Counted from the first letter of the stretch, positions 3,417-31,147 are shown. The stretch is DNA of 31,147 nt from a bacterium (GCA_965233585.1 CBDDTI010000466.1:1-31147); one strand, 5' to 3'. A program made the numbers and translations. Notes: generated from the sequence alone by a model not told the origin.

Positions 3417-4121
3417 CCTACGCGAGGCTTACATTTCGCGTACGCGCGCACAATTTCAGCCTACGCGGAAGCTTGGGTGGGGATAGGTTGCCTACGCAGG
3501 CCTACGCGCGTGAGGTTTTATGCAATTTTTAGCTAAATATGCCTACGCGCCCACAGTCTCAGCAACATTTTCGTATGATTGCGCACCCTTTTACAAAGCT
3601 GTTCATGATCCAATGATCGCATTAAAAACAATGAGGAGGAAGAGGGCCATGTGCTTATTCATCGGTTGTTACATGGTGAGAAGACATTAGGCAACTACCT
3701 ATTTCGCCAAAAATGCATCGAGCACGTTGAGCGCGCGTTTTTGTTTCCAGTCCGCAGATGACTCAAACGAAGAGGAGGAAGAGGAACTTGAAGAAGAAGA
3801 AGAAAAAGAAGAAAAAGGAGAAGAAGCAAAAGAAGAAAAAATTAGTCCGCAGGTGTAAGACGCTGGTTCTGCCGTCGCTTCTTGGCAGCAGGGATATAAT
3901 ATTCGTTGCAGGAGCATGTTTGGGGGCATCCCTGGTCATGAGAGTTTTCGCCTACGCGTTGCCTACTTTTCGCCTACGCGGTGCCTACGCGGGGGAGCTC
4001 CTTTATTTTCGGATTTTGGCCATGCAAACTTCGAGGCTTGAGACTCTGCAGAAAAGGGAACGGAATAGTTCCATTAGCTTTTGTTTCTCAGCAAAACAGT
4101 TGCTATCTTCTAATTACTTGT
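3417..4121. repeat. Left part of a repeat region with clustered (G)CCTACGC(G) motifs; target of the giant insertion
   Basis: Same-orientation CCTACGC motifs cluster at ~3417-3550 and ~3949-3992. The same motif resumes after the giant element at ~30837-30910. Confidence 0.55.
3768..3840 (+). repeat. Purine-rich (GAA/GAG)n low-complexity tract
   Basis: gaagaggaggaagaggaacttgaagaagaagaagaaaaagaagaaaaaggagaagaagcaaaagaagaaaaa. Confidence 0.8.
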
Positions 4122-4261
4122 AACCTCTGTTCTTTGATTGGGATAGTTTGGTTTTTGAAATGATAGTTTCATTTTGGGTGAAACAATGCAGTTGTTTTTT
4201 GCTTTTCAATTTGGGGATGGTTTTCCAACATGTTTCTTTTCATTTTCTAGGGTTAAGTTTT

Positions 4262-4500
4262 CATGCTAAAATTGAAACCTGGAGAGGTGGGGGCAGGTCA
4301 GAACAAAAAAACATGCTGTAATTCAAACAACAAGTATCATGATTACTGAACCAAACGCACACACACATACACACAGTTGTCATGCTTAAATTGAAACCTG
4401 AAGGGGTGGGGGCAGGTCAGAACAAAAAAACATGCTGTAATTCAAACAACAAGTATCATGATTATGAACCAAACACACGCACATACACATACACAGACAC
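4262..4500 (+). repeat. ~119-bp subterminal tandem repeat, 2 copies (left arm)
   Basis: Unit CATGCTWAAATTGAAACCTG...GGGGGCAGGTCAGAACAAAAAAACATGCTGTAATTCAAACAACAAGTATCATG... starts at 4262 and 4381. Confidence 0.85.
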
Positions 4501-4860
4501 ACTGCCAATGACCATCAAGTATCATGAACATATAAATATATACATAAATGTCTTTATATATATATACTTAATCAATGGTCATGCACATATGATACCAATA
4601 TAGTGTCACCAAGAGGCATGCACGTATGTCACCATCACAAATCATAATATACCATCCAGTGTCCCACAGTTGTCATCCACTTGTGATACCACCATGCACA
4701 TGTCATGAACATAAATATGATACCATTAATTTGTACCTGCAGGTTTCCTGGACAGGTGATGCCGTTGCAGCAGCCTTCAGCTGGGGATGGTGGGGATAAC
4801 GTCCCTGAACAAGGGACTAGCCCTGAACAAGGGCATCATAACCCCTAAAATAATGGGCTT

Positions 4861-5063
4861 CAATTCCAAGACTTGGCATTCCAGGCCTTGGCAATTGAAT
4901 TAAGACATCAAATTCAATTCCAAGACTTGGCGTTCCAGGCCTTGGCAATTGAATTAAGACATCAAATTCAATTCCAAGACTTGGCGTTCCAGGCCTTGGC
5001 AATTGAATTAAGACACCAAATTCAATTCCAAGACTTGGCATTCCAGGCCTTGGCAATTGAATT
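4861..5063 (+). repeat. 54-bp minisatellite, ~4 copies (left arm)
   Basis: Unit CAATTCCAAGACTTGGCRTTCCAGGCCTTGGCAATTGAATTAAGACATCAAATT starts at 4861, 4915, 4969 and 5023. It produces the 18-aa repeat ORFs in the track. Confidence 0.9.
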
Positions 5064-7149
5064 CGTATCCGTTCCAAGAAAAGGGTTAAACAAAAATCTG
5101 TCCCGTAGCTGGCAAATACATACATACACCTCCCTGTCATTTTCAAAGTTGTGAGAATTCATCAGGAATAATTCCAGTCTAGATTTTTTTTCATATTCTT
5201 ATTTTCACAAATGAGTTGGATGACTATATGCATAGTTCTTTTTTTTGTCTGGTGCGTGGCATTTTTGGGGCTTGGTGTGATCTACAGGTGTTCAATGCAT
5301 ATACATGACTATACTCATACACTTCTAGTGGATTGCATGCTCCAACCATCAGGTTCCCAAATGTGGTTGTAGGAATGGAGCTGCATAGGAACCTAAATAC
5401 CGACTGGTTTGACATTAGGATTTCAAATGGCAGACCTTCAACCAAATTAAACAAAAACACACTGTTTTTGAAGACATGATTAGATATGAATAGTTGTGAC
5501 TAGTGTAACGATGGAACAGTTTGAATTTGCTTACTATGGTCTTTGCACCAAAAGGTGTCGAACTTTAGCTGCTCTTGACAGAAAACACATTGTACCAACA
5601 GGGCACTGTTACTCTTCTAGATAAACCATACTCTTAGAGGGACATTCCATCATGCCTCCCTCGGGGATTTCCATTCAAGGTTCCAAATGTCCAAGAGGAA
5701 CAGAATTGCTTGTTTGCTTCTCTTGGGTTCAATTTCTATATGATGTTGTTATTGATGATGATTATTAAATGTGGAAGCTGAACATGAAATTCAGACTTGG
5801 TCATTTTCCAAGTCTGCAAAATCTCTATGGTTCGGTCTCCCAGACAATGTTTTGGCACAATAGTGAATCTTCAATGCACTTCAAGACTTGGCCTCTCAAG
5901 TCTTGCACTGACAAACGTGATCACTGAGACTTTAAGGTTTTTCTCGATGTGATGCAAATGAGTTCTTCAAAAGTTCAAGGCTTGAATCCAAGTCCAACCA
6001 CTCATGTTTGTCTCAATTGGCTACACTTCCCAGGTCTTTCACATATGGTTGATTCATGGTAGTTACCACTAACATGGTTCAGAACTTGGCTGTATCAGTA
6101 TTACTTTTTTGTCCTTTCATGACCTGGTCTTTCAAGACATGAACACATTTTTTTCAAGACTTGGCATCCCAAGTTTTGAAACAAAAAGGTAAGAGTTCAC
6201 CCTTAAATTGTCCAAATGCATTGCACCAAGTTCTGGATTTGATTGGACTTGGCATTCCAAGTCTGGAACTCAACTTGACCCATCTTGGTAACTATTTGAC
6301 CTTCCAAGTCTTCAAGCTCAAGACTTGGGTTTTTGTTGCAAGGTTTTCTGCCTTGGCTCACCAATGAAGTTAGTCTTTGCGACTTTTTAAAAATAATAGG
6401 TTTCAACACTTGCTACCGCCCTGAGCCTGAAAACTTGCAAACAAGCTGTTCTGTAGTTTGATACTTGTTATGTTTCCTGTTGGGTGTCCAGAGTGGTAAA
6501 GATTGGTCTTGTGCTCACAACTTGGAACTCCAAGTCCGGAGCCCAAGAATGATATATTGCAATACTTGGCCTTCAAGTGTTGGAAATGATTTTATTTCAC
6601 TTCCAAATTTTAACCACTCCTAACATTTTACAACCATGTACTAAAATGTGTAACAAGCGGAAACTTTATACATGTGTTTTTTCCTGCCATATGTGGGGCT
6701 GTGCCCGCATGATTCTTTACACATGATGCAATCTTAAAACTTGGCTTCTCAAAATTTGAAACCATTTGGTGTTGTATGCTTGCACATGCCTTTTACAAAA
6801 GACACAATGTGGAATTTCATGGCATCATGCCATCTTCAAGACTTGGCTTCCCCAGTCTTGAAACTGTTTGCAGCTAGTTTTTGCTAACAATAGACTGTGG
6901 ACATCCAAGGTATGAACACGATGGGTTGTTTTTCAAGACTTGGCATCCCAAGTTCTGAAACGTGACAATTTTTCAACTCATGCCCCTAACTTGACAACGG
7001 TACCAAGTGTAACACCCATCCAGGTTTGGCAGTCCAAAGCGGTAGGGATGGGCATTGTGCAGCTTAAGAATGGTGCATTGCAAAATTTGGCCTCAAAGTG
7101 TGAAAATGAGGTTCCTGAGAAAATGGTTTAGAAACTCGCCACACTTGCC

Positions 7150-9328
7150 TTCCCAAGTCTTGAATCCTTTTGGGGCAAAGAATTTCAACATTAGACCCTT
7201 GCCAAGAATTATGTCTTTCATGATTTGGCCTTCCAAGACATGAACACAAGTGAACATGATTGTCAAGACTTGGCAGCCACAGGTCTGAAATCTTACACCT
7301 TTTTTTTGAAGACTTGGCATGCCAAGTTTTGAAATGTTACATTTTTGCAACTCCATGTCCCCAAGTCTTGACAATGACTGCACTATTCAAGACGTGGCTT
7401 TCCAAGTCTTCAAACTTGTCGGGGTAACGAATTTCAACATTAGACCCTTGCCGAGAATTATGTCTTTCATGACTTGGCCTTCCAAGACATGAACACAATT
7501 GGAAAAAGTTTTTCAAGACTTGGCAGCCACATTTCTGAAATCTAACACCTTGTGTTCAAGACTTGGCATGCCAAGTTTTGTAATGGTGTTACATTTTTTT
7601 GCAACTCCATGTCCCCAAGCATTGACAATGATTGCCCTATTCAAGACTTGGCTTTCCAAGTCTTGATTTTTTTGGCGGTATAGAATTTCTTCAGTATAAG
7701 TAAGATTTACTGTATGTCTTTCATGACTTGGTCTTCCAAGACATGAACACAAGTGAAAATGATTGTCAAGACTTGGCAGCCACAGGTCTGAAATCTTACA
7801 TTTTTCTCTCAAGACTTGGTATTCCAAGTTTTGAACTGCTACATTTTTGCAACTCCATGTCCTCAAGTCTTGGCAATGATTGCACTATTTGAGACTTGGC
7901 TTTCCAAGTCTTGAAACTATTTGCTGTATAGACTTTCAACAGTATAACAAAGACTTATGTCTTTCATGACTTGGTCTTCCAAGACATGAACACAAGTGAA
8001 AATGATTGTCAAGACTTGGCAGCCACAGGTCTGAAATCTTACATAGTTCTTTTAAGACTTGGCATGCCAAGTTTTGAAATGTTACATTTTTGCAACTCAG
8101 TGTCCCCAGGTCTTGACAAATAACTGCACTATTCAAGACTTGGCTTTCCAAGTCTTCAAACTTTTCGTGGTAAAGAATTTGAACGTTAGACTCAAATAAG
8201 AACTTTCATGACTTGGTTTTCCAAGACGTGACCACAAGTGAACATGATTGTCAAGACTTGGCAGCAACAGGTCTGAAATCTTACATTTTTCTTTCAAGAC
8301 CTGGTCTGCCAAGTCTTGAAACGTTACGTTCTTTGGCAACTCCATGTCCCCAAGTCTTGACAATGATTGCCCTACTCAAGACTTGGCTTTCCAAGTCTTG
8401 ATTTTTTTGCGATATAGAGTTTCAACAGTATAAGTAAGATTCATGTCTTTCATGACTTTGTCTTCCAAGACATGAACACAAGTGAAAATGATTGTCAAGA
8501 CTTGGCAGCCACAGGTCTGAAACCAAGTCTTGAACTGCGGCATCTTTTTGCAACTCCATGTCCCGAAGTCTTGACAATGATTGCACTATTCAAGACTTGG
8601 CTTTCCAAGTCTTGAATCCTTTTGGGGCAAAGAATTTCAACATTAGACCCTTGCCAAGAATTATGCCTTTCATGACTTGGCCTTCCAAGACGTGAACACA
8701 AGTGAACATGATTGTCAAGACTTGGCAGCAACCACAGTTCTGAAATCTTACATTTTTCTTGAGACTTGGCAATATCCCATGTCTTGAAATGTTACATTTT
8801 TTGGCAACTCCATGCCCCCAAGTCTTGACAATGATTGCACTAGATAAGTCTTGAAACTTTTTGGGGCAAAGAATTTCAACATTTGACCCTTGCCAAGAAT
8901 TATGTCTTTCATGACTTGGTCTTCCAAGACGTGACCACAAGTGAACATGATTGTCAAGACTTGGCAGCCACAGGTCTGAAATCTTACATTTTTCTTTGCT
9001 ACAATTTTGCAACTCCATGTCCTCAAGTTTTGACAAAGATTGCACTATTCAAGACTTGGCTTTCCAAGTCTTGAAACTTTTTGCTGTATAGACTTTCAGC
9101 AGTATAACCAAGATTTATGTCTTTCATGACTTGGTCTTCCAAGACATGAACACAAGTGAAAATGATTGTCAAGACTTGGCAGCCACAGGTCTGAAATCTT
9201 ACATAGTTCTTTTAAGACTTGGCATGCCAAGTTTTGACATGTTACATGTTTGCAACTCAGTGTCCCCAGGTCTTGACAAATAACTGCACTATTCAAGACT
9301 TGGCTTTCCAAGTCTTGAAACTTTTTGC
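7150..9328 (+). repeat. ~245-bp satellite, ~9 diverged units (inner part of left arm)
   Basis: Anchor TTTCATGA(C/T)TT recurs at about 7216, 7465, 7719, 7962, 8204, 8448, 8668, 8907 and 9122. Each unit holds several CAAGACTTGG/CCAAGTCTTG motifs. Confidence 0.9.
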
Positions 9329-10980
9329 AGGAAACAGTTTGATAATGTTTGGCTTGCGCTTGTTGGTGCTTGTAGCCGCTGCTGCTGCTGCCCCTGATGA
9401 TTCACCCTCAGCTCGGTATGCATTGCCCTCCCTGTTGAGAGCAGCATTGTGCTGCTGAACCACCTTCATCCATTCATCCCGCACTTCTGGAATGGTGAGC
9501 TTCTCCTCCATCGCATCCAGGAAGGCGGCTCTGAGAGGAAGTTCATTCGATGCACTTGGAAATGTGCATGTGAAATCAGCAGAATTCAAACTGGGCATGA
9601 TAAGATTTTCTGCGTAAGTCGACAATGGCTCCCAATTTGGAACGACTGTGATGCCTTCTGTGGCTAGCCTGAAGCCGCCTCTTCAGGGCGACACAAAGCC
9701 AATTCGCAACTTTCGCCGCATCGACCTTCCTGTTGGCACCATTTGGATCACGAGTATTGGCCTCGGCCCAACAAGGCCGACACAAAGCATTGATGGCAAC
9801 TTTGTGTTGGAGGACAGCCGCATGATGGCTTCAGCCATGCTGTGGTCATAGGCAAAGGTGTCAATGATGCAGCAGCCCACTGAGCCATCAAGGCCAAGAC
9901 CAAGCAAAAGGCCCTGTAGCCATGCAGATGGCAAAGAAAAGCCTGACAGCCATTGCTTTCGCCTGCTGGCTCTGGACAAATCCATGACTCCTGCAGAAGT
10001 CTTGAAGTCACGCCGAGGGTCGACGTAATTCCTCACTGAATTCATCTGCACCGTGATGTCCTTGGAGGATGGAGTCACCTGTCGTTTCCAAGCTGCAGAC
10101 TTGGCAAACACACTGACATAATCACCTTCTTCCTGCAAGTCACTAATGATTGCACATGAAAAACTTGTGTACACCAGGTCGGTATGACTGTGGTGGATAA
10201 CTTGAATGGTCAAACATCACAGTGACTTCACGCAGCACGAGTCGGTGCTCTGGCATCTTCAAAAGTTCCATCATCTTGGCAGCTGTATTCGCAATTTCAT
10301 CCTCATCACATGCGTTGCCATATCCACCAACAGTCGGGCATGCAAGGACCAAGCATGTGTTTGCTGGTGATGCTGCGATCAAACCAGCATACTCCTTCAC
10401 AGCTGTCACTGTGTTCTTCCAGCCATCATACCCCAAGGTTGAAAAATTGAGCCAGTAGATCTTGAGAAACTTGTTCTCAGCCAGACCCTTCTCAGCTGCA
10501 AAGCGATGGATTGATGCCTCATAGAATGTCGTTCCATGGCCACATTCTGAAAGATCTCGGACTGGGAAGTTGCACTCTTGCATGGCATTGATTGCAGCAC
10601 GTTGAGCCTCACGCTGTTTCTCAAGCATTTCTGCACGTAGACCCAGACCGACCTTCTGAAAGTTTTCAACGCCAAGCTGGTACTCCTTGAACTTGGTCTC
10701 TTCTTTTTTGGAGCTTTGCAACGGCCTTGACCATCTCAGCTTTCTGTAGATCCAAGTTGGCTTTCTGCAGGTCCAAGTTGGGCCCCAGCATCCCCTCTGC
10801 AACACCATAGTCAGCCAAGAATCGGAAGTCGCCAACTTGCAGGGGACTGGATCCGGATCTCCTCCATCATCTCAGTGGCCAGGTAACTGCGGACAAACGT
10901 CAACTCACAAGCTTCCAGCTGTGCATCTGTGAGCACCTTCTCGAATGCCGGGCGAAAGTGTGCAAACAAGCAGCACATTT
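9329..10980 (-). pseudogene. 3' portion of cargo gene 1 (unknown protein; degenerate amino-MTase-like segment); frameshifted and 3'-truncated against the satellite
   Basis: Protein-like frames chain through ORFs 10143..10835, 9683..10213, 9576..9785 and 9293..9625 via small frameshifts. The frame is continuous with 15882-16116 once the 10981-15879 insertion and one TT are removed (...DDAHSWQ|MCCLFAHFRPAFEKVL...). Confidence 0.7.
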
Positions 10981-13900
10981 CCCTGAGTCTCCGGAATTAG
11001 TAAATTTAGGTCGAGCTAAATTTACGTAAATGGGAGCAGTTTAGGTAAAACATTTACTAATTTATTTTTCCACCTAAATAAAAAATCAAATTTAGGTTAC
11101 GACCTAAATTAATTTACTGATCGACCTGAATTAATTTACTAATCGACCTAAATTTTTGGATGTTGTATTTTTACTTAAAACTATTTAGTTTTGTTAGCAT
11201 TTTGCATGTGGGGTTTTTACAGAATCATCAAATTTTGCTGTGATTTTGCATGCGTTGCCCTAAGTCTGCAAACCTAGTAACTTTACTAATTTAGTAAACT
11301 TACTAATCGGGAGGAGACTGCGATTCTTTTTTGGCCAAGTCACCCAATATTAGTAGATTGTGTGAACAATGAAAAATGCACCAAAGGTGCATCAAACATG
11401 CCTGTTGTTGTTGTTGTCGTCGTCGTTGTTCTATCTATATAGTTGCCATGCATCTGATACATGGGGAAGAATCTGCTAACAAAATTTTGCAAATTTAGTA
11501 TATGCTGTTTGTTGAGAATGTTCACAAGTAAGCCTCTGTAAAAAACACATGATTTTTGCTAAACTGTATTACGTGTAAGCTAGATTGATGCGAAAAAGAA
11601 GGCCAGAATCTTAGCAAGTGACCACTCAAGTAAAAAAAACAACTATTTAGGGGAACCTACATTGGGATTTACATGAGGTATCTGTATTATATCAAGTGTG
11701 ATTTTTCTAGTGAAATTTACAAAAGATAATTACATTGGAATTTACACGAGTGACTGCGGAGCATTCCAGTTTGGGATGAAAAACATGTTAGGTAGATTGC
11801 AATCACATTAAAACAAATCATATATCAAAGCAGGAAGAACTAAACCATAGCTATGAAAGCTATGCTCTTTGATAAAGAACAAATATAGAGGGGTATTGTT
11901 CGTTTTGTTTTTCAGCCTGGTTTCTTGGTTTGTGTGGTTTTTCTGATTTGGTCTCTTGGCTTTAGTGGCTTTTGGTTTTTATGACTCATAAAGTGTGCTG
12001 CAATTGCTTTTGCGGTTTTTGTGTTTTTTTCGGATTTTGTAGTTTTTGTAGCTGTTGTGGTTTTTATGGTGTGTGGCTCTTGTGGCTCTTGGTTTCTTCG
12101 CCCTTTGGGGTTGTTTTGGTTCGTTGGCTTTTGCGGTTTCTTGGTTTTTGTGCTTTTCCCTCTCTGAGTTTATATGCATGTGTTTGCGAAAGGGATTAAC
12201 ACATGGTTTCAACAAGTGTCCTAACTTGCCCTTTTCCATGTTCTGAAAACAGTATTTCAGGACACTTGTTGAAATTTATTGTCCAAAAAAATTCTACTTG
12301 ATTTGTGTTTCACAACAAATAATCAGTGGGGAAAAAGGGGTGCTCAGTTCTTCATTTGAACTTACATGGAACCAATAGGAAAACCAAAACAAATGAACGG
12401 TACTTCAGAAGAGATTCAATTTCACATTGCCTTCATTTGGGTTTACTTGAGCTAGCATTCAGTTTACATGGCATGAGTGTTTGCACAGTGGACTCTATTT
12501 ATTTGAGACTGCTTTTAGGGACCCTGCATTCACTTAACTTTACTTCAGACTGCGCTGGTGGCTGCACTTGGACTTTATACTTGAGAACAATTCCAATGAG
12601 TTTGCTTTTGAAAACAACTCCAATGAACTTTACCCGAGAGGGAATCCAGTGAACTTTACTTGGGAACAACTCCAATGAACTTTACATATCTGAAAAAAAA
12701 ACTTTACCTGAGAACCCTTTTTTAAGGCTGCTCAAGACGATATTGGGGTCACGTCCAGTTAACTTGGTTTGAAACCATTTCCCTTGAACTTTTGGTGAAT
12801 CCTATCTTACAGAAACAATTTTCTTTTAGATTCAACACGCCACCTGAATCTTCATGAGATGCCTCATCTCATCATCAAATGCATTCAGCTTGTCATCTTG
12901 TCTACATGTTTATTTTGGAATTCAACTATACTATACAAGGTTGCTTGCGACTTTCATTCTTAAGACTCATGTATTCCACCGCAGTTCAAATTGCAAAAAC
13001 ATATGAAAACTATTTGGAGTTATCTTGAATACAGGTTTTGCTGTATTTTTATATTTACGTTATGGTTTCACGTATAGACTCTTGTTTTTTTTGGGGGGGT
13101 CACAACACATGGTTCTTGTACACAAGGCCTTCAGGAAATCCCTTTTGAATTTCTTATGAACTTCTTGTGACATTTCATGATCTTCTTTTGCATTTTCAAG
13201 AAATCGTTATGCATTTTTTATGCTTTTCTTATGCAGTTCTTATGCATTTCTTATGCATATCTTATGCAATTCTTTTGCATTTCTTATGCAATTATTTTGC
13301 ATTTCTTATGCAATTCTTTTGCAATTCTTATGCATTTCTTATGCACTTCTTATGCAGTTCTTTTGCAGTTTTAAAAACTTCATACACTTTTGCCAAAACT
13401 GCATACACTTTTGCCAAAACTGCATACACTTTTGCCCAAAACGTATGAAGTTGTAAAAACTGCATAAGAATTGCATAAGAAATGCATAAGAATTGCATAA
13501 GAAATGCGTAAGAAATTCATAAGAAATGCATAAGACATGCATAAGAAATTCATAAGAAATTCCTTTACAAAAAATCAGAAATGCATAAAAACTGCAAACA
13601 AAAATGCAAAAGAAGTAAAAGGAATTCAGGAGAATTTCAATAGACATGCAAAAGGAATGCATCAGAATTTCAGAAGAAATTCACAAGAAAATATTGCCAT
13701 TGTGTCCAAAAAATGATGAAAAAATGGAATGCCTCAGGAATTTCTTTTGAAATTATGTTGCTGTTCCTTTGCACTCTTCATGCACTTTCTACTGCATAGA
13801 AATTTTCTCCAAAATTAATTCAAACCTCATCAAACACCGAAAAACGTTCATCACATGTTTATCAATTTTCGTTTGCACAACACTGACTTCAACTGAATCT

Positions 13901-15879: not shown

Positions 15880-15881
15880 TT

Positions 15882-17594: not shown

Positions 17595-18603
17595 CAGAAA
17601 TGGCACTGGCCAGGGTGGCTAGTGCCATTTCTCCAGATGCCAATAGTGTAGTGACTTTGGAAATCGGGGCCTGGTACCTTACAGGCCACTGGAAAGAAAC
17701 TTTAAGACCAAATAGGCAATGTCATTAAGATAATGATGTCCTGAGAAATGGCACTGGCCAGGGTGGCTAGTGCCATTTCTCCAGATGTCATTATTGTAGT
17801 GACTTTGGAAATCGGGAGCTGAAAAATGACAAAGAAACTTCAAAGACCAAAAAGGCAATGTCATTAAGATAATGATGTCCTGAGAAATGGCACTGGCCAG
17901 GGTGGCTAGTGCCATTTCTCCAGATGTCATTATTGTAGTGACTTTGGAAATCGGGAGCTGAAAAATGACAAAGAAACTTCAAAGACCAAAAAGGCAATGT
18001 CATTAAGATAATGATGTCCTGAGAAATGGCACTGGCCAGGGTGGCTAGTGCCATTTCTCCAGATGTCATTATTGTAGTGACCTTGGAAATCGGGAGCTGA
18101 AAAATGACAAAGAAACTTCAAAGACCAAAAAGGCAATGTCATTAAGATAATGATGTCCTGAGAAATGGCACTGGCCAGGGTGGCTAGTGCCATTTCTCCA
18201 GATGTCATTATTGTAGTGACTTTGGAAATCGGGAGCTGAAAAATGACAAAGAAACTTCAAAGACCAAAAAGGCAATGTCATTAAGATAATGATGTCCTGA
18301 GACATGGCACTGGCCAGGGTGGCTAGTGCCATTTCTCCAGATGCCATTATTGTAGTGACCTTGGAAATCGGGAGCTGAAAAATGACAAAGAAACTTCAAA
18401 GACCAAAAAGGCAATGTCATTAAGATAATGATGTCCTGAGAAATGGCACTGGCCAGGGTGGCTAGTGCCATTTCTCCAGATGTCATTATTGTAGTGACTT
18501 TGGAAATCGGGAGCTGATACTTTACAGACCACTGGAAAGAAACTTTAAGACCAAATAGGTAATGTAATTAAGATAATGGTGTCCTGAGAAATGGCACTAG
18601 CCA
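17595..18603. repeat. 139/148-bp tandem array, each unit containing a 39-bp palindrome
   Basis: GAGAAATGGCACT-GGCCAGGGTGGCT-AGTGCCATTTCTC at 17595, 17743, 17882, 18021, 18160, 18299 and 18438, with an interrupted copy at 18586. Inner spacing is 139 bp; the outer two intervals are 148 bp. Confidence 0.95.
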
Positions 18604-21600
18604 CCCTGAGTCTCCGGAATTAGTAAATTTAGGTCGAGCTAAATTTACGTAAATGGGAGCAGTTTAGGTAAAACATTTACTAATTTATTTTTCCACCTAA
18701 ATAAAAAATCAAATTTAGGTTACGACCTAAATTAATTTACTGATCGACCTGAATTAATTTACTAATCGACCTAAATTTTTGGATGTTGCATTTTTACTTA
18801 AAACTATTTAGTTGCGTTAGCATTTTGCATGTGGGGTTTGTACAGAATCATCAAAATTTGCTGTGATTTTGCACTGCAAACCTAGTAACTTTACTAATTT
18901 AGTAAACTTACTAATCGGGAGGAGACTGCGATTCTTTTTTGGCCAAGTCATCCAATATTAGTAGATTGTGTGAACAATGAAAAGTGCACCAAAGGTGCAT
19001 CAAACATGCCTGTTGTTGTTGTTCTATCTATATAGTTGCCATGCATCTGATACATGGGGAAGAATCTGCTAACAAAATTTTGCAAATTTAGTATATGCTG
19101 TTTGTTGAGAATGTTCACAAGTAAGCCTCTGTCAAAAACACATGATTTTTGCTAAACTGTATTACGTGTAAGCTAGATTGATGCGAAAAAGAAGGCCAGA
19201 ATCTTAGCAAGTGACCACTCAAGTAAAAAAAACAACTACTTAGGGGAACCTACATTGGGATTTACATGAGGTATCTGTATTATATCAAGTGTGATTTTTC
19301 TAGTGAAATTTACAAAAGATAATTACATTGGAATTTACACGAGTGACTGCGGAGCATTCCAGTTTGGGATGAAAAACATGTTAGGCAGATTGCAATCACA
19401 TTAAAACAAATCATATATCAAAGCAGGAAGAACTAAACCATAGCTATGAAAGCTATGCTCTTTGATAAAGAACAAATATAGAGGGGTATTGTTCGTTTTG
19501 TTTTTCAGCCTGGTTTCTTGGTTTGTGTGGTTTTTCTGATTTGGTCTCTTGGCTTTAGTGGCTTTTGGTCTTTATGACTCATAAAGTGTGCTGCAATTGC
19601 TTTTGCGGTTTTTGTGTTTTTTTCGGATTTTGTAGTTTTTGTAGCTGTTGTGGTTTTTATGGTGTGTGGCTCTTGTGGCTCTTGGTTTCTTCGCCCTTTG
19701 GGGTTGTTTTGGTTCGTTGGCTTTTGCGGTTTCTTGGTTTTTGTGTTTTTCCCTCTGAGTTTATATGCATGTGTTTGCGAAAGGGATTAACACATGTTTT
19801 CAACAAGTGTCCTAACTTGCCCTTTTCCAAGTTCTGAAAACAGTATTTCAGGACACTTGTTGAAAATTATTGTCCAACTATTTCTACTTGAATGTGTTTC
19901 ACAACAAATAATCTGTGGGGAAAAAGGGGTGCTCAGTTCTTCATTTGAACTTACATGGGACCAATAGGAAAACCAAAACAAATGAACGGTATTTCAGAAG
20001 AGATTCAATTTCACATTGCCTTCATTTGGGTTTACTTGAGTTATTAGCATTCAGTTTACATGGCATGAGTGTTTGCACAGTGGACTCTATTTATTTGAGA
20101 CTGCTTTTAGGGACCCTGCATTCACTTAACTTTACTTCAGACTGCGCTGGTGGCTGCACTTGGACTTTATACTTGAGAACAATTCCAATGAATTTGCTTT
20201 TGAAAACAACTCCAATGAACTTTACCCGAGAGGGAATCCAGTGAACTTTACTTGGGAACAACTCCAATGAACTTTACATATCTGAAAAAAAGAACTTTAC
20301 CTGAGAACCCTTTTTTAAGGCTGCCCAAGATGATATTGGGGTCACGTCCAGTTAACTTGGTTTGAAACCATTTCCCTTGAACTTTTGGTCAATCCTATCT
20401 TACAGAAACAGTTTTTTTTAGATTCAACACGCCACCTGAATCTTCATGAGATGCCTCATCTCATCATCAAATGCATTCAGCTTGTCATCTTGTCTACATG
20501 TTTATTTTGGAATTCAACTATACTATACAAGGTTGCTTGCGACTTTCATTCTTAAGACTCATGTATTCCACCGCAGTTCAAATTGCAAAAACATATGAAA
20601 ACTATTTGGAGTTATCTTGAATACAGGTGTTGATGTATTTTTATATTTACGTTATGGTTTCACGTATAGACTCTTGTTTTTTTTTGGGGGGGGTCACAAC
20701 ACATGGTTCTTGTACACCAGGCCTTCAGGAAATCCCTTTTGAATTTCTTATGAACTTCTTGTGACATTTCATGATTTTCTTTTGTATTTTTAAGAAATCT
20801 TTATGCAGTTCTTATGCATTTCTTATGCATATCTTATGCAATTCTTTTGCATTTCTTATGCAATTCTTTTGCATTTCTTATGCAATTCTTTTGCAATTCT
20901 TATGCATTTCTTATGCATTTCTTATGCACTTCTTATGCAGTTCTTATGCAGTTTTAAAAACTTCATACACTTTTGCCAAAACTGCATACACTTTTGCCCA
21001 AAACGTATGAAGTTGTAAAAACTGCATAAGAATTGCATAAGAAATGCATAAGAATTGCATAAGAAATGCGTAAGAAATTCATAAGAAATGCATAAGACAT
21101 GCATAAGAAATTCATAAGAAATTCCTTTAAAAAATCAGAAATGCATAAAAACTGCAAACAAAAATGCAAAAGAAGTAAAAGGAATTCAGGAGAATTTCAA
21201 TAGATATGCAAAAGGAATGCATCAGAATTTCAGAAGAAATTCACAAGAAAATATTGCCATTGTGTCCAAAAAAATGATGAAAAAATGGAATGCCTCAGGA
21301 ATTTCTCTTAAAATTATGTTGCTGTTCCTTTGCACTCTTCATGCACTTTCTACTGCATAGAAATTTTCTCCAAAATTAATTCAAACCTCATCAAACATCG
21401 AAAACGCGCATCACATGTTTATCATTTTTTCTCCAACCAGCTCCCTTCTTTTGCACAACACTGACTTCAACTGAATCTGAATTTGCCAAAACAGATTCCA
21501 GGATATTTTGACCCAGCTGCTCAAGTAAAACCAAACCCAACCCATGTAAACCCTTCAAGGTCTTATATAAGTATGCAACAAATAAATGCGATTATACTTA

Positions 21601-23464
21601 TAATATGTTACTATGTTACTATAGCTTTAGGCCTCCCCACCTTCAACCCTAATGTTCAAACAACATCAAGAAAAAACCAAACAAAATGAACAGGTTTGAA
21701 CTACCTTTTTTATGATCACAAATAGGTCTTAAATAAGTTCATGTAAACCTTCAGGTGGGGATGTCTCAACATGAGGTGTCCTTTTTTCTTTTAAAGTGAC
21801 ATTTTATCCCATAAAAAGGACACCTTATTTTTTGATGATTTTTTTAGAGTTAAAGTGTTTAGCTTTCAATTTTACCAGAAACGTGGTCACTTGCTAGGAT
21901 CCTGGTTGTACTTTAACATGTACATTAAGGGTCCAGATTACAGAAAAAATGGCCTGCGGTCTACAAAACGGAAGGGGACAGCCTGAGAGTGTTTTTTTGT
22001 GTTTTCTACACCTGCAATGGATTAATTTGTTCTTCGCAGTCTCGCCTTTGCATGGTCTTTCCTTTTTGCAGAATACAATGATACAACACCCAAAAAAGAA
22101 CAAAAACAAACAAACAAGAAACCCAGAAATTCCACCAAAAAAGAGCACCAACCCAAGAAACCAAAATACAAAGAAACAAAACAAATTGCACACCCAAAAC
22201 GGGGGAAGATGCAGAGAATTGGGTCCCGTCATGTTTTCTGTTTTGTTTGTTTTTTTGGTTTGTCTTTTTGGTTCCTTGTTTCTTTTGAAGGGCTGGCAGG
22301 ACAAAAAAGTGGCAGGACCTAACCTTCTGCTACTTCTCCCAGCTTAGGGTTTGCAAAATTGTTTTTTTTTATTGATTGCTGTGGGTCTGTGGTTTCATGA
22401 CAAAACTACGACAAAACCACAGAAAGATGTAGGTATCATCGTGGGAACTTCGTGGGTTTGGGACATGGATTGGGCAATTTTATGTCCGATTCAGTTTTGA
22501 AAATATGCCAAAAGATTATGCAAAACATAGGCAGCCAATCAATTTGTAGGATTGACTTTGCTATTGGCATTTTTCAGTCAAAACCTTAGGTCAACAACAC
22601 CTGAAATTAGTCCATTAAATATGAAAAAAAAACTAATCACAGTTTTTGACCTACCCATGGAACACTTTAAAAATGTTCAACATCCAATACATACAACGCA
22701 TTTCCAAAACATCTACATATCAAAGCAGATGCATACAAAACACGTATACAAAATCACAATTTCTCATCAGAAATTACATTGATTTTTAGATATTCCAACA
22801 TAGAAACGTTAGTAGGTGTTTTTCTAACATAAGTGAATTGTGGTACATACGTAGATTTTACTAACACAAGGAAAACTCTTGAATTTACGGTAGTAAGTCC
22901 CACAGTTTCAATAATTTTGTGCGCACCTAAATTCACTAGCTTTGCGGACTTATGGTGGTTGCTGGTGCGTCTATGTTTGGCCTAATGGTTTTCACTTGTG
23001 TGGGAAGATTTAGGAGAAAGGATGAGAGCTATGACTCCTGCAGTTGAAACACAGCTTACCTCAAACTAGCCTTGTTTCTTGATGTTACTTATGCCATTGT
23101 TTTTGACTTTGGTTGACTTTGCAGCTTGTCACTTTGCTTGATTTACTTGTGATGGCTTCTGTTACTTCACATCAAACCACTTGTTCTTTTGAACAGCCAA
23201 CCGCACACACACAAGTGATATTTTTGAAAACAGCACAATATTTATAGAGAAACTCGTCAGATCAAGACACATAGCTGACTTGAGAACATCATGTGAATAT
23301 ACTGAAAACAACAGAATTTTAAGCAAAAAAAGTCACTATGAAATTTAGGTTACGACCTAAATTAAATTAGGACGTTAAAAAAATAGGTCAATTTTTGCAC
23401 CTAATTTTTTTGGATTACCTAAATCAAGGCCCTAAGTAAATTTACTAATTCCGGAGACTCAGGG
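18604..23464. mobile_element. Non-autonomous ~4.9-kb CACTA/EnSpm-like DNA transposon, copy 2 (TSD CA)
   Basis: Perfect 28-bp TIR CCCTGAGTCTCCGGAATTAGTAAATTTA. CA lies on both flanks (18602-18603 and 23465-23466). Same orientation as copy 1 and near-identical to it along its whole length. Confidence 0.85.
20800..21124. repeat. Central inverted microsatellite of nested element copy 2
   Basis: Same structure as 13205-13562 but with fewer left-hand units and two rather than three 21-bp loop units. Confidence 0.85.
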
Positions 23465-23585
23465 CACCTTGGCAGACCAGAGTTGTCACGCCAAAAAAAA
23501 CACAATGTAGTTATTTTGAATTTATGCTCCTTAAACTCTGATTCTGTTTGGGGATGACAGAGAACCACACTGCATCATGTTACAA

Positions 23586-24722
23586 TCAAAAAAGTATAGT
23601 CTTTTTCAAGCAACTGACACCATGGAATTCAAAGTTCTCACTGAACTGGAAATATTTCACGTATGTGGCAATGGTCAGATGACACACCCAACCATTCATT
23701 GGATTGACATTTGAAACATGCAGCATAGAAATGTTGAACACTTGAAGTAACAGTGTGGTATTTCCTGGCAATGTCACGCACAAACAGCTCAACATTTTCC
23801 CATCCAAGCATTGCTCTCCATTCTGGACTGATTGCCTCTGGATCTTAGTCACAAGAGACCTTTGAAACCCTTTCTGCGTTGAATGGTCTTTTAAGACCTT
23901 CCTTCGCAACGATGCCCCCATTAATGGCATCCCCTTGCCATGGTGACGAGGAAATTGAGCTGTCCACTTGCATCGCCGACGTTCAGGCATGGTCCATGGA
24001 GCCTTTGAGTTTGTCATGAGTTGGTCCATCGCTCGCTGTTTCGGCTTCGTGAAACTCTCGTCCTTCACGGCGAGCTTGCCCAAGACCACACCACTCAGCG
24101 GCATCTGCATGGAGAACATCTTCTTGTGACAGACAGGCTGGACATGTGGGCTTCCAAGCTTCTTCACAAGCACGATCCTGGCTGATGTTTGAGAGCAATT
24201 TTGGGGATGTGCGGTAGAAAAAAACAAATTCAATCGGTAACTCACATGCTTTTTCGTTTAGTACATCCCAAGTTCACAGCAAAATTAATATTGAAACATG
24301 TTTTCTTCAACAGAGGTGATGGCCCCCAAGTCCTTCCATACCCATTGTGGCGAAGAACCAGCTGATCTCCAAACTCGTTGAAAACTGCCAGCCGGAACTG
24401 AGGGAACTTGTTGTTTTGAGCCGGTACTGCATTGCAGAGCCATCTCCTTCAAGCAAGCAATCTTCCAACCAGATCTCGTTGCCCTCTGTGATTTCCTGCA
24501 GCATGGCACACAAGAGGCACTACAGTTTTGAACAAATCAAATCAACAAATAATAGTCATGCAAATCAATTCACAAATTGTTAAGTCGTTCTTTTTTCGAC
24601 TGCCCCACCTCCCAACCATCCTCGTCCAGAAATTCCTGGACCAGGGCCGTTTGCCTTCTGTAATAGTGGTAGGCTGAGATTTCCTTCACTTGCCAGGCAG
24701 CCAGTGCACGAAACCAAGCCAT
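23586..24722 (-). CDS. Cargo gene 2, unknown spliced protein (MAWFRALAAWQVKEISAYHYYRRQ...), with one probable 1-bp frameshift; 3' end uncertain
   Basis: GCCATGG at 24722. Exon 24722-24609, GT-AG intron 24608-24496, exon 24495-24333 (needs +1 A in the run at ~24414-24417), GA-AG intron 24332-24178, then ORF 23586..24245 in matching phase (GYG-R-IVLVKKLG...). Confidence 0.5.
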
Positions 24723-25458
24723 GGCAACACTAGAGATTCAATAATAGAGATGCAAAAAAATGTGGTCAAGACTGCACTACAAAGAGTAAGATGTGAGATG
24801 TACAAATGAGACATAACCAGCAGTCAAGCCATGGCACTTGATGCCAGATGTACAAAAAGCTGCTGCTGCAGTAAAAACTCGCCGCAATAAGATCTGGAAT
24901 GGGTCACAGAATCTGTTCATGCAATTCAAATTGACTGAATTGGCTGACCCAAGTCTTACTCATTATTTGTGTGCCATAATCAGATCTTGAACCTGAAATA
25001 CACAAGGAAGAAAATGCGGCATGGCAAAGCTCGTGGCAGAGCACAACTTAGAGGCACTGAAAATAGAACATTTAAATTAGATGTTTTCATTGTCATGTGT
25101 TTCTGTTTTCTTCAACCAGCATTACCTTAAGATCAACCAGCTGTACTGAAATCCAGAAAGTGTACCACTATGCTTACTTTTTTCTGATTACACAGTAGCT
25201 TGTTCTCATAGTACCTGCAGACAGACCCTTGTCTTTGGGATATCGAATCTTGTGATACTACAATATGGTTCATACTGCTGTACACTCAAGATCCTTGATA
25301 TGAAGGCTTATGTTTGAGATACATAGATTTGACTAATACCATATTTGGGTAGTAACCAGTACGCAGCAAGACCACATGCACAAGAGATGTCGTGAGCGCA
25401 TTTTTGTTTGCATCAGTTTTGTGATTACTCAATGTTTTCGAAATCATACAAATGCAGT

Positions 25459-27250
25459 GACATAATTTTTGGCAAGGGTCTAATGGCTAGTGTTGAAACT
25501 GTTTGCCCTAAAAGGTTTCAAGGCTTGGAAAGCCAAGTCTTGAATAGTGCAATCATTGTCAAGACTTGGGGACATGGAATTGCAAAAAAACGAATACCAT
25601 TTCAAAACTTGGGATATCAAGTCTTGAAAGAGAAATGTAAGAATCAGACCTGTGGCTGCCAAGTCTTGACAATCATGTTCACTTGTGTTCATGTCTTGGA
25701 AGACCATGACATGAAAGTTCTTACTTGGGTCTAATGTTGAAATTATTTGGCTCAAAAGGTTTCAAGAGTTGGAAAGCCAAGTCTTGAATAGTGCAATCAT
25801 TGTCAAGACTTGAGGACATGGAATTGCCAAAAAAAACATTTCAAAACTTGGGATTCCAAGTCTTGAAAACATGCAAGATTTCAGAACTGTGGCTGCCAAG
25901 TCTTCAAACATATTTCCAAATGAGTTCATGTCGTGGAAGACCAAGTCATGAAAGACATAATTCATGGCAAGGGTCTAATGTTGAAGTTCTTTACCCCGAA
26001 AAGTTTCAAGACTTGGAAAGCCAAGTCTTGAATAGTGCAATCATTGTCAAGGCTTGGGGACATGGGGTTGCAAAAAAATGTAACATGTCAAAACTTGGGT
26101 TCAAAGTCTTGAAAAAATGTAAGATTTCAGAACTGTGGCTGCCAAGTCTTGAAAAAATATTTCCAAATGTGTTCATGTCTTGGAAGACCAAGTCATGAAA
26201 GACAATTCGTGGCAAGGGTCTAATGTTGAAAGTCTTTACCCGAAAGTTTCAAGACTTGGAAAGCCAAGTCTTGAATAGGGCAATCATTGTCAAGTCTTGG
26301 GGACATGGAGTTGCAAAAAAGTAACAGTTCAAGACATGGGATATTGCCAAGTCTTGAAAGAAAAATGTAAGATTTCAGAACTGTTGTGGCTGCCAAGTCT
26401 TGACAATCATGTTCACTTGTGTTCATGTCTTGGAAGACCAAGTCATGAAAGACATAATTCGTGGCAAGGGTCTGATGTTGAAATTCTTTGCCCCGAAAAG
26501 TTTCAAGACTTGGAAAGCCAAGTCTTGAATAGCGCAGTCATTGTCAAGACTTGGGGACATGGTGTTGCAAAAAATGTACATTTCAAAACTTGGAATACCA
26601 AGTCTTGAAAAAAAGATTTCCGAACTTGGTCTGCCAAGTCTTGAAAATATTTCCAGATGTGTTCATGTCTTGGAAGACAAAGGCATGAAAGGCATAATTC
26701 TTACTTATACTGTTGAAATTCTTTGGCCCAAAAGGTTTCAAGAGTTGGAAAGCCAAGTCTTGAATAGTGCAATCATTGTCAAGACTTGGGGACATGGAAT
26801 TGCAAAAAAACATTTCAAAACTTGGGATTCCAAGTCTTGAAAACATGCAAGATTTCAGAACTGTGGCTGCCAAGTCTTGAAAAAATATTTCCAAATGAGT
26901 TCATGTCTTGGAAGACCAAGCCATGAAAGACGTAATTCTTGGCAAGGGTCTATAATGTTGAAATGCTTTACCCCGAAAAGTTTCAAGACTTGGAAAGCCA
27001 AGTCTTGAATAGAGCAATCATTGTCAAGGCTTGGGGACATGGGGCTGCAAAAAAATGTAACATTTCAAAACTTGGGGTACTGCCAAGTCTTGAAAGAAAA
27101 ATGTAGGATTTCAGATCTGTGGTGGCTGCCAGTTCTTGACAATCATGTTCACTTGTGTTCATGTCTTGGAAGACGAAGTCATGCAAGACATAATTCTTAC
27201 TTGGGTCTAATGTTGAAATTCTTTACCCCGAAAGGTTTCAAGACTTGGGA
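25459..27250 (-). repeat. ~245-bp satellite, ~7 units (inner part of right arm)
   Basis: Anchor CATGAAAG (one variant CATGCAAG) recurs at about 25710, 25947, 26194, 26444, 26684, 26922 and 27180. It is the reverse complement of the left-arm satellite. Confidence 0.9.
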
Positions 27251-29403
27251 AGGGAAGTGTAGCAAGTTTCTGACTGTTAGATAATTTCATCCGCATGAGC
27301 CAATGCAAAGTCTTAAGAAGCTAAACCATTTTCTCAGGAACCTCATTTCCACACTTTGAGGCCAAGTATTGCAATGTACCATTCTTAAGCTGCACAATGG
27401 CCCATCTCTACCGCTTTGGAATGCCAAATCTGGATGAATGTTACAATTGGTACCGTTGTCAAGACCTAGGGACATGAGTTGAAAAAATGTCACGTTTCAG
27501 AACTTGGGATGCCAAGCCTTGAAAAACAACCCATCGTGTTCATGCCTTGGATGTCCACAGTCTATTGTTAGCAAAAACTAGCTGCAAACAGTTTCAAGAC
27601 TGGGGAAGCCAAGTCTTGAAGATGGCATGATGCCATGAAATTCCACATTGTGTCTTTTGTAAAAGGCATGTGCAAGCAAAAAAAACAAATGGTTTCAAAA
27701 TTTGAGAGGCCAAGTTTTAAGATGGCATCATGTGTAAAGAATCATGCGGGCACAGCCCCACATACGGCAGAAAAAACACAGGTATAAAGTTTCCGCTTGT
27801 TACACAGTTTAGTACATGGTTGTAAAATGTTAGGAGGGGTTAAAAATTGGAAGTGGAAGAATATCATTTCGAACACTTGAAGGCCAAGTATTGCAATATA
27901 TCATTCTTGGGCTCCAGACTTGGAGTTCCAAGTCGTGAGCACAAGACCAATCTTTACCACTCCGGACACCCAACAGGAAACATAACAAGTATCAAACTAC
28001 AGAACAGCTTGTTTGCAAGTTTTCAGGCTCGGGGCGGTAGCAAGTGTTGAAACCTATTATTTTTAAAAAGTCGCAAAGACTAACTTCATTGGTGAGCCAA
28101 GGCAGAAAACTTTGCAACAAAAACCCAAGTCTTGAGCTTGAAGACTTGGAAGGTCAAATAGTTACCAAGATGGATCAAGTTAAGTTCCAGACTTGGAATG
28201 CCAAGTCCAATCAAATCCAGAACTTGGCGCAATGCATTTGGACAAGTTAAGGGTGAACTCTTACCTTTTTGTTTCAAAACTTGGGATGCCAAGTCTTGAA
28301 AAAATATGTTCATGTATTGAAAGACCAAGTCATGAAAGGACAAAAAAGTAATACTGATAAAGCCAAGTTCTGAACGATGTTAATGGTAACTGCCATGAAT
28401 CAATCATATTTGAAAGACCTGGGAGGCGAAGCCAATTGAGACAAACATGAGTGGTTGGACTTGGATTCAAGCCTTGAACTTTTGAAGAACTCATTTGCAT
28501 CACATCGAGAACAACCTTAAAAGTCTCAGTGATCATGCTTGTCAGTGCAAGACTTGCGAGGCCAAGTCTTGAAGTGCATTTAAGATTCACTATTGTGCCA
28601 AAACAATTTCTGGGAGACCAAGCCCAAATAGATGTTGCAGACTTGGAAAATGACCAAGTCTGAATTTCATTTTCAACTTCCACATTTAAAAACCATCATC
28701 AAGAACAACATCATATTGAAATTGAAGCCCAAGAGAAACAAAAAACAATCATGTTCATCTTGGACATTTGGAACCTTGAACGGAAATCACCAAGAGAGGC
28801 ATGATGGAATGTCCCTCCAAGAGTATGGTTTATCTAGAAGAGTAACAGTGCCCTGTTGGTACAATGTGTTTTCTGTCAAGAGCAGCTAAAGTTCGACACC
28901 TTTTGGCGCAAAGACCATAGTAAGCAAATTCAAACTGTTCCATTGTTACACTAGTCACAACTATGCATATCTAATCATGCCTTCAAATCCATGAGTGAAA
29001 CCGTGTGTTTTTGTTTAATTTTGTTGAAGGTCTGCCACTTGAAATCCTAATGTCAAATCAGTCGGTATTTAGGTTCCTATGCAGCTCCATTCCTACAACC
29101 ACATTTGGGAACCTGATGGTTGGAGCATGCAATCCACTAGAAGTGTATGAGTATAGTCATGTATATGCATTGAACACCTGTAGATCACACCAAGCCCCAA
29201 AAATGCCACGCACCAGACAAAAAAAACTATGCATATAGTCATCCAACTCATTTGTGAAAATAAGAATATGAAAAAACATCACCTTCTAGATTGTAGTTAT
29301 TCCTGGTGAACTCTCACAACTTTGAAAATGAAAGGGAGGTGTATGTATGTACTTGCCAGCTACGAGACAGATTTTTGTTTAACCCTTTTCTTGGAACGGG
29401 TAC

Positions 29404-29822
29404 GAATTCAATTGCCAAGGCCTGGACTGCCAAGTCTTGGAATTGAAGTTGATGTCTTAATTCAATTGCCAAGGCCTGGAACGCCAAGTCTTGGAGTTGA
29501 ATTTTATGTAATTCAATTGCCAAGGCCTGGAATGCCAAGTCTTGGAATTGAAGTTGATGTCTTAATTCAATTGCCAAGGCCTGGAATGCCAAGTCTTGGA
29601 ATTGAAGTTGATGTCTTAATTCAATTGCCAAGGCCTGGAACGCCAAGTCTTGGAATTGAAGTTGATGTCTTAATTCAATTGCCAAGGCCTGGAACGCCAA
29701 GTCTTGGAATTGAATTTGATGTCTTAATTCAATTGCCAAGGCCTGGAACGCCAAGTCTTGGGGTTGAAATTTATGTCTTAATTCAATTGCCAAGGCCTGG
29801 AATGCCAAGTCTTGGAATTGAA
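29404..29822 (-). repeat. 54-bp minisatellite, ~8 copies (right arm)
   Basis: Reverse complement of the 4861-5063 unit. ORF 29314..29808 shows eight QALAIE repeats, one unit being 3 bp shorter. Confidence 0.9.
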
Positions 29823-30159
29823 GCCCATTATTTTAGGGTTTATGATGCCCTTGTTCAGGGCTAGTCCCTTGTTCAGGGACGTTATCCCCACCATCCCCAG
29901 CTGAAGGCTGCTGCAACGGCATCACCTGTCCAGGAAACCTGCAGGTACAAATTAATGGTATCACATATATGTTCATGACTTGTGTGCATGGTGGTATCAC
30001 AAGTGGATGACAACCCGGGGACACTGGGTGGTATTTTATGATTTTATGACTCTTGGTGACATTATATTGGTATCATATGTGCATGACCCTTGATTAAATA
30101 TAAATATATATATATATATATATTTATGTTCATGATGCTTGATGGTCATTGGCAGTCTG

Positions 30160-30591
30160 TGTGTGTGTATGTTTGTGTTTGGTTCAGTAATCATGAAACT
30201 TGTTGTTTGAATTACAACATGTTTTTTGTTCTGACCTGCCCCCCCTCCAGGTTAGTGTGTGTGTGTGTTTGGTTCAGCAATCATGATACTTGTTGTTTGA
30301 ATTACAGCATGTTTTTTGGTTCTGAACTGCCCCCACCCCTCCAGGTTTCAATTTAAGCATGACTACAGTGTGTATGTGTTTTGTTTGGTTCAATAATCAT
30401 GATACTTGTTGCTTGAATTACAGCATGTTTTTTGTTCTGAACTGCCCCCACCCCTCCAGGTTTCAATTTAAGCATGACTACTGTGTGTATGTGTTTTGTT
30501 TGGTTCTGTAATCATGATACTTGTTGTTGGAATTACAGCATGTCTTTTTGGTTCTGACCTGCCCCCCCCTCCAGGTTTCAATTTTAGCATG
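30160..30591 (-). repeat. ~119-bp subterminal tandem repeat, ~4 copies (right arm)
   Basis: AATCATGA(T/A)ACTTGTTG...GAATTACA(G/A)CATGT...CCCCTCCAGGTT recurs four times, one unit shortened. Confidence 0.85.
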
Positions 30592-30732
30592 AAAACTTAT
30601 CCCTAGAAAATGAAAAGAAACATGTTGGAAAACCATCCCAAAATGGAAAAGCAAAAAAATACTGCATTTTTTCAGCCAAAATGAAAATATCATTTTCAAA
30701 AACCAAACTATCACAATCAAAGAACAGAGGTT

Positions 30733-30912
30733 TTGTGCTTTTTGGACAGCGGAAATTTCACATGCCGCATCGAGCTACACTCATTAGACCCTTCAATCTT
30801 GACCCACAGGCTGCAAAATTCGTCGAATCCGCGGTCGCCTACGCGGCGTCTGCCGCAAAATGAAGCAAAATATGCCTACGCCAGCCTACGCACCCCAGCA
30901 AACTGCCTACAT
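30733..30912. repeat. Right part of the GCCTACGC-motif repeat region
   Basis: GCCTACGC motifs at ~30837, 30874 and 30884 and GCCTAC at 30905, in the same orientation as those at 3417-3992. AAATATGCCTACGC occurs on both sides (3535 and 30868). Confidence 0.5.
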
Positions 30913-31147
30913 CCAACCATGTGCAGGTCAACTTTCATATAAATCTTTACTTGTAAAAAAAAACTCTGCTCAATTGGACATGACGATGGGCCATTTAAAG
31001 GTGCCAAGTATGACACATATCTTTCTGACCGGAGTTTCTAGGTTTCTTGTTGAAATCATAAGGTCAATGGTCAGTAGATTGATGTAGGAAACACGGGTTT
31101 TGCATAGTTTTGCCAACAATGGGGTTTGCCTTAAAAAAGAATCCTTC

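Follow-up and report, generated by a model that had tools for sequence, protein, structure and literature searches.

What kind of mobile element is the 26.6-kb segment carried by contig CBDDTI010000466.1 of assembly GCA_965233585.1 (31,147 nucleotides, analysed over its whole length and referred to here as the window), and what moves it? An earlier, sequence-only reading had taken the segment for a giant foldback-like transposon with terminal inverted repeats (TIRs) of ~5.2 kb, a 4-bp target-site duplication (TSD) and spliced cargo genes, perhaps from an undescribed family of dinoflagellate elements, an interpretation that the analysis reported here partly supports. We conclude, with a probability of about 0.7, that positions 4122–30732 are a non-autonomous copy of a foldback-type class II (TIR) transposon from a Symbiodinium-like dinoflagellate, inserted in a host repeat and moved in trans.

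Outline and termini of the element

The element spans 26,611 bp (4122–30732). Its inverted arms, at 4122 to ~9340 and ~25460 to 30732, were delimited by self-BLASTN, alignment of one arm to the other and direct reading of the ends, and all three agree with the proposed inverted homology that starts sharply at 4122/30732 and runs for more than 5 kb through three tandem modules. In self-BLASTN, 4122–4489 pairs with 30732–30369 at 91.6% identity, and 4858–8906 pairs with 29607–25459 at 87.1% across 4,207 columns. Global alignment of the arms, scored in blocks of 300 columns, gave identities of 83–98% that fell to 63% in the final block, beyond ~9340/~25495, the large gaps reflecting differences in tandem-array copy number. 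The inverted homology is real and far above chance; a general inverted-repeat search of the window returned 270 inverted pairs, the longest of 535 nt at 97%.

The outer edges of this homology are exact, with AACC at 4122 and GGTT at 30732, and the terminal 19 bp of the two arms (4122–4140 and 30714–30732) form a perfect inverted repeat. When up to three mismatches were allowed, this 19-mer was found twice in the whole window, at the outer ends only (0.06 matches expected; none of 100 shuffles reached two), with no inner copy at the same tolerance. Its search in prokaryotic genome contigs was uninformative, yielding three matches against ~4.3 expected by chance, with only 20–24 bases matching. 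GC content goes from ~0.50–0.53 in the left flank to ~0.39–0.40 in the arms.

Empty sites and the target repeat

The tetranucleotide TTGT, read directly, stands immediately outside both ends, at 4118–4121 on the left and 30733–30736 on the right. Such a 4-bp match of the flanks has by itself a chance probability of ~1/256, and we regard the pair as a real target duplication because sites lacking the element were found. An empty site had been suggested as a check by the sequence-only reading, and the search for one used as query a 91-amino acid (aa) open reading frame (ORF) that crosses the right terminus, compared against the protein collection. All four matches fell on the flank part of the query. 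P0191, a 147-aa protein from a contig of 56.5 kb, aligns with 3906–4121 and directly afterwards with 30737–30953, and its stretch LSSNYLCFLDSGNFTCRIELHS is identical to the translated window flanks joined with one TTGT; P0188 shows the same flank-to-flank join, with a short deletion just upstream. At the level of predicted proteins, P0191 and P0188 are thus paralogous, allelic or orthologous empty sites, each with a single TTGT, and since both read from flank to flank, they show that the full 26,611 bp were inserted together, as a single unit, and that 4 bp were duplicated. It is unlikely that the signal comes instead from splicing-out of the element, because no possible junction phase, on reading of the ends, gives a GT...AG intron. 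Moreover, wrong-frame ORFs, for example P0007 and P0039, occur among the proteins sourced from ENA, which gives the set the appearance of simple ORF calls made on contigs.

Both flanks belong to one host repeat, as follows from the distribution of the motif CCTACGC: all 12 of its occurrences lie on the + strand in the flanks (599; 3417–3984; 30838–30885), with none in the element and none on the other strand. The left target flank (3906–4121, +), to which P0191 residues 2 to ~72 map, is part of this multi-copy repeat, and the right target flank (30737–30953, +), to which P0191 residues ~76–147 as well as P0188, P0189 and P0190 map, continues it.

Some further features of the flanks were noted. 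The multi-copy flank repeat marked by the CCTACGC motif is also found in P0188–P0191, which come from four other contigs. Further out on the left, an uninterrupted ORF of 774 aa (1030–3354, +) has as its sole domain match a C2H2 zinc finger, at 27.5 bits against a cut-off of 27, and zinc fingers only among its PDB matches; this ORF is probably part of the targeted host repeat. A purine-rich (AAG/GAA)n tract lies at 3770–3840, just upstream of the target region.

Modular architecture of the arms

The left arm (~5.2 kb, 4122–9340, +) was defined by repeat finding in addition to the comparisons described above. From the outside inwards, it consists of the 19-bp terminus (4122–4140), a unique 140 bp, a 115-bp module (~4261–4490, ~2 units), a 54-bp module (4859–5063, 3.8 units), a unique stretch of ~2.1 kb (5064–7142) and a ~244-bp module (7143–9340). 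The right arm (~5.3 kb, 25459–30732, −), whose inner edge lies at ~25460–25497, runs in the opposite order from the ~244-bp module (25459–27258, 7.2 units) through unique sequence (27259–29404), the 54-bp module (29405–29823, 7.8 units) and the 115-bp module (30165–30592) to the terminus (30714–30732). Tandem Repeats Finder, BLAST and the arm alignment concur in placing all three modules in both arms, where the ~2.1-kb unique stretch separates the 54-bp from the 244-bp module. Copy numbers differ between the arms, with ~2 units of the 115-bp repeat on the left and ~3–4 on the right, and 3.8 and 7.8 units, respectively, of the 54-bp repeat.

The arms also concentrate a near-palindromic 9-mer, CAAG[A/T]CTTG, which occurs 81 times in the window, 40 times in the left arm, 41 times in the right arm and nowhere else, and which may represent putative protein-binding sites. 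Looking up arm ORFs in the protein collection revealed that the one at 28086–28313, in the right arm, has an exact copy on three other contigs and belongs to a cluster of six members.

The features that define a foldback-type element are all present, namely long TIRs built from tandem repeats, TIRs that make up the majority of the element, and a TSD with evidence of insertion. Removal of two nested insertions (4,899 and 4,861 bp; see below) leaves 16,851 bp, matching the earlier estimate of ~16.8 kb, and the arms, at ~10.5 kb, account for most of it. Structure and empty sites together sustain the description of the segment as a mobile, foldback-like insertion whose modular TIRs are very long.

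A broken, intronless gene in the interior

The proposed spliced cargo genes were not borne out. The interior contains one intronless, frameshifted and 3′-truncated gene, and nothing else recognisable in the ORF scans. This minus-strand gene runs from ~17205 to ~9413 and covers approximately residues 35–912 of relatives of 1,179 aa. It lies in two parts, mapped by translation and by tblastn of P0046, P0044 and P0028, which left no intron-sized gaps. The 5′ part (15880–17205, −) has its start Met near 17205, corresponds to about residues 1–385 of the relatives and carries one frameshift common to all near-identical copies; the 3′ part (9413–10980, −) corresponds to approximately residues 385–912. 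The C-terminal ~270 residues are absent where the gene abuts the left arm.

At least four frameshifts interrupt the reading frame. Those at ~16400 and ~10160 are common to the window and dozens of near-identical copies, in clusters of 74 and 114 members, and those at ~10840 and ~10700 were seen only in the window and in P0008. The 74-member cluster, that of P0034, has 99% identity and the same frameshift throughout; in the 114-member cluster, that of P0001, one member sequence is found on 83 contigs. Because two of the frameshifts are common to dozens of copies, the family must have been amplified after the gene broke, which is observed for the gene itself and would by extension apply to the whole element. 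The truncation point, too, recurs elsewhere: P0028, P0029 and P0032 form one cluster at ≥90% identity from contigs of three different sizes, and the two that were fetched, P0028 and P0032, pass from the truncated gene to the 244-bp module of the arm. The join between gene and arm is therefore a family trait, not peculiar to this locus.

The protein family of the interior gene

With P0040 as query, phmmer retrieved 175 proteins at E≤1e-3 from a set of 1.84 billion representatives; 92 of these reached E≤1e-10 and 19 reached E≤1e-30, and full-length members measure ~1,100–1,240 aa. All records with a named organism are 'unnamed' or 'hypothetical' proteins of Symbiodinium. One cluster at ≥90% identity comprises 11 proteins of Symbiodinium sp. 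CCMP2592, which are listed on contigs of at least 10 different sizes; 10 are 1,055 aa or longer. None of 21 long family members reached any Pfam cut-off, and neither did the eight relatives scanned first. NCBIfam gave no match to the family, PHROGs one at E 0.06, the ESM Atlas no usable match, and a family profile run against PDB sequences none at E≤1, with one meaningless match at E 1.1.

The family does fold with confidence in silico. AlphaFold2, with an alignment of 79 sequences, returned a mean predicted local distance difference test score (pLDDT) of 90.7 and a predicted template-modelling score (pTM) of 0.50, and the N-terminal 420 aa alone gave a pLDDT of 92.7 and a pTM of 0.89. Of the 37 Foldseek matches listed against PDB, 34 were amino-methyltransferases (25 N6-adenine/N4-cytosine DNA methyltransferases and nine METTL3-14), two ParB and one ClpA, the best at E 1.4e-3 and none at or below 1e-3; the 50 listed against BFVD included 11 named DNA methylases and six ParB/Spo0J-like proteins, the best at E 1.6e-4, this being the one match at or below 1e-3. 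The methyltransferase matches are consistent but, like those to ParB, weak, with TM-scores to the target of 0.4–0.6. Neither list contains a transposase, integrase or recombinase (0/37 in PDB, 0/50 in BFVD). The fold search with the N-terminal domain gave nothing below E 0.3, and its ParB-type rows (5k5d, 6sdk, SspE), at E ~0.45, are leads only. Canonical N6/N4 methyltransferases carry the motifs DPPY and FxGxG; by eye, neither is conserved in the family alignment (A1), and by sequence the 21 long members do not fall into Pfam N6_N4_Mtase. At a weak fold level, then, the models suggest that the family resembles a ParB-like domain joined to an N6/N4 DNA methyltransferase-like domain, and not a transposase.

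How the element may move

In the window, 54 ORFs (29 + 25) were scanned with Pfam, and none matched a transposase family; apart from the zinc finger of the 774-aa ORF, which alone reached its cut-off, the matches were all sub-threshold (7tm_1, FtsK_alpha, a holin family, Peptidase_M48_N and VirB3). With the gene broken and the family amplified afterwards, mobilisation would have to come in trans. The element entered a copy of the host repeat as a single unit and duplicated its TTGT. In the mechanism that we propose, the perfect 19-bp tips would serve as cleavage and recognition ends for a transposase encoded outside the window. This would most likely be an enzyme of the cut-and-paste type, cutting with a 4-bp stagger and binding the tips, perhaps also the CAAG[A/T]CTTG arrays. 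Two copies of an unrelated 4.9-kb TIR element landed in the interior after insertion, one of them in the gene.

Several points weigh against this account. Cut-and-paste movement and action in trans are both steps that we infer for a window in which no transposase was found, and we know of no superfamily that AACC...GGTT termini would match. The element is known at the DNA level from one complete copy, and its empty sites are read from predicted proteins, not from contig DNA. None of the four matches of the terminus-spanning ORF covered its 48 element-terminal residues. Nine of ten arm or junction ORFs, in addition, had no exact copy in the protein collection, which as an exact-match test is a weak one.

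The main rival account would make the ~1,150-aa family the element's own mobility protein, the present copy being an internal-deletion derivative of an autonomous giant element of an undescribed superfamily. The gene has no introns, is complete at its 5′ end and breaks off precisely where the arm begins, as deletion derivatives do; the family is large (175 members at E≤1e-3, with the 11-member Symbiodinium cluster), the gene/arm junction recurs on other contigs, and no other candidate enzyme appeared among the 54 ORFs. Against this, the fold matches listed in PDB and BFVD contained no nuclease, transposase, integrase or recombinase fold, just one Asp and one Glu are invariant across 12 full-length members, and it is just as simple to suppose that the element carries a methyltransferase-like gene as a passenger, so that we consider an own mobility protein unlikely, if worth keeping in mind. 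Similarly tentative, and in our judgement doubtful, is the broader idea that an undescribed superfamily of giant foldback-type elements in Symbiodiniaceae, characterised by 4-bp TSDs and by CAAG[A/T]CTTG arrays in multi-kb arms, depends for its movement on the ParB-like/methyltransferase-like family, either as the machinery itself or as an indispensable partner.

The remaining explanations concern the insertion itself. One TTGT at the empty sites and two at the filled site would fit equally well with a site-specific or tyrosine-type recombinase, for which TTGT would be a shared crossover core and not a fill-in duplication, but no recombinase domain was detected in the 54 window ORFs, no Phage_integrase-type match was obtained in them or among the 21 long family members, and long TIRs with perfect tips are typical of transposase substrates, all of which makes this route quite improbable. 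That an arm ORF is found on several other contigs indicates that arm sequence is repeated in its own right, as it would be if two independent solo arm elements had come to lie in opposite orientation around unrelated DNA. Such a composite is very improbable, given that the arms have no inner terminus, the terminal 19-mer being confined to their outer ends, that at the empty sites arms and interior are missing jointly and one TTGT is present, and that the gene/arm junction recurs on other contigs. Replication errors or chimeric reads, finally, can make large inverted duplications, but an inverted segmental duplication or assembly foldback artefact can hardly be reconciled with arms that differ (83–98% identity) and have unequal module copy numbers, with a 16-kb asymmetric interior between them, or with sharp ends, a TSD and empty sites. 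We therefore retain the non-autonomous foldback-type transposon, moved in trans, as the preferred reading.

Nested insertions and the rest of the interior

The two nested copies of the 4.9-kb TIR element lie in direct orientation, are 96.0% identical by self-BLASTN and have TIRs of ~30 bp, starting CCCTGAGTCTCCGG, and 2-bp flanking repeats, TT and CA. Copy 1 (4,899 bp; 10981–15879, +) is inside the gene and has TT as its TSD; copy 2 (4,861 bp; 18604–23464, +), with CA, sits at the edge of a 139-bp tandem array. Removal of copy 1 together with 0–4 extra bp was tested, and only +2 bp restored the frame that is read through in relatives (P0040); the 2-bp TSD of copy 1 is confirmed, since its removal restores the frame of the disrupted gene. 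The nested element is non-coding. Inside the copies, at 13142–13690 and 20743–21250, arrays of the 11-bp unit TTATGCATTTC face arrays of its complement and form a palindrome of ~0.5 kb.

Upstream of the gene, tandem-repeat finding and self-BLASTN delimited the 139-bp array (17586–18603, about seven units), in which no coding signal was found. Its units are 89–96% alike, each with an internal inverted repeat. The 2-kb spacer between nested copy 2 and the right arm (23465–25458) has no recognisable coding content, with no Pfam match in its ORFs and no tblastn match from any retrieved family protein. Across the window, an Rfam scan at gathering thresholds and a tRNA scan returned no matches.

Host and significance

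A Symbiodinium-like dinoflagellate host, consistent with the dinoflagellate origin suggested by the sequence-only reading, is supported because every family member with a named source is from Symbiodinium. A 15-base piece of the dinoflagellate spliced leader had no match in the window with up to two mismatches; it is thus the named relatives that support the host assignment. Dinoflagellate genomes are, to our knowledge, huge and rich in repeats, and their DNA transposons barely characterised. Full-text literature searches revealed no foldback-type element described in dinoflagellates; the paper on Amoebophrya introners deals with short intronic elements (PMC7789003).

The copy described here is complete in structure and verified as an insertion, its arms reaching about four times the length of the longest of Galileo, and it ties a large, confidently folding, unannotated protein family to a mobile context. 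Long inverted arms promote ectopic recombination and inversions in Drosophila, according to excerpts of PMC4079207 and PMC3573991. Elements of this kind could contribute to structural divergence among Symbiodinium genomes.

Comparison with known transposon groups

The conclusion of the sequence-only reading that a 4-bp, non-TTAA TSD excludes Mutator/FB, P/Galileo, piggyBac/Kolobok and Polinton withstood scrutiny. The target of piggyBac and Kolobok is TTAA, not TTGT as found here. Mavericks/Polintons have 6-bp TSDs and genes for a protein-primed polymerase and an integrase, whereas the TSD here is of 4 bp and neither a polymerase nor an integrase domain appeared in the 54 ORFs. Helitron-like and viral readings were rejected for want of a matching gene and for the wrong TSD, and Crypton and other tyrosine-recombinase elements because no recombinase gene was found in the 54 ORFs and 21 relatives. 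TSDs of 4 bp are known from Sola, Chapaev/CMC, Ginger1 and Academ (3–4 bp in the last). The likeness to these groups is one of TSD length only; no DDE or integrase gene was found in the window ORFs, and we know of no arms of this size or AACC termini in Sola, Chapaev/CMC, Ginger1 or Academ. For non-autonomous elements, Repbase, as partly described in PMC4455052, bases classification on TSD length and the first 11 terminal bases.

A weak likeness in fold to ParB-like and N4-N6 DNA methyltransferase proteins of phages and giant viruses concerns the interior gene alone; the family differs from them in having no sequence-level match in Pfam, NCBIfam, PHROGs or PDB.

The closest structural parallels are with foldback elements of Drosophila. 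In the account of FB and Tetris given in parts of PMC4079207, these have very long, tandem-built TIRs, in which an outer, a tandem and an inner domain can be told apart, around a middle region that varies, and they include non-autonomous copies; Tetris of D. virilis is assigned to Mutator on the basis of its 8–10-bp TSDs. The present element likewise has very long TIRs made of tandem sub-repeats, but differs in its 4-bp TSD, its ~5.2-kb arms with three different modules and its dinoflagellate host. Membership of the Mutator/FB superfamily was rejected on TSD length, 4 bp as against 8–10 bp; no Mutator-like element (MULE)-type transposase was found in the 54 ORFs either, which a non-autonomous copy need not carry. 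Galileo, of the P superfamily, is described in passages of PMC3573991 as having TIRs of up to ~1.25 kb and 7-bp flanks, the longest TIRs being those of non-autonomous copies; TIR length shifts there as internal tandem repeats, which are not the same in the two arms, expand and contract, and these repeats have been proposed as secondary transposase-binding sites. Both elements have foldback-like TIRs with tandem repeats unequal between the arms, but the TSD here is of 4 bp, not 7 bp, which sets aside the P superfamily, and no remnant of a P/THAP9-type transposase was seen in the 54 ORFs. The element is thus of the foldback kind by structure and is set apart by its 4-bp TSD from the known foldback lineages.

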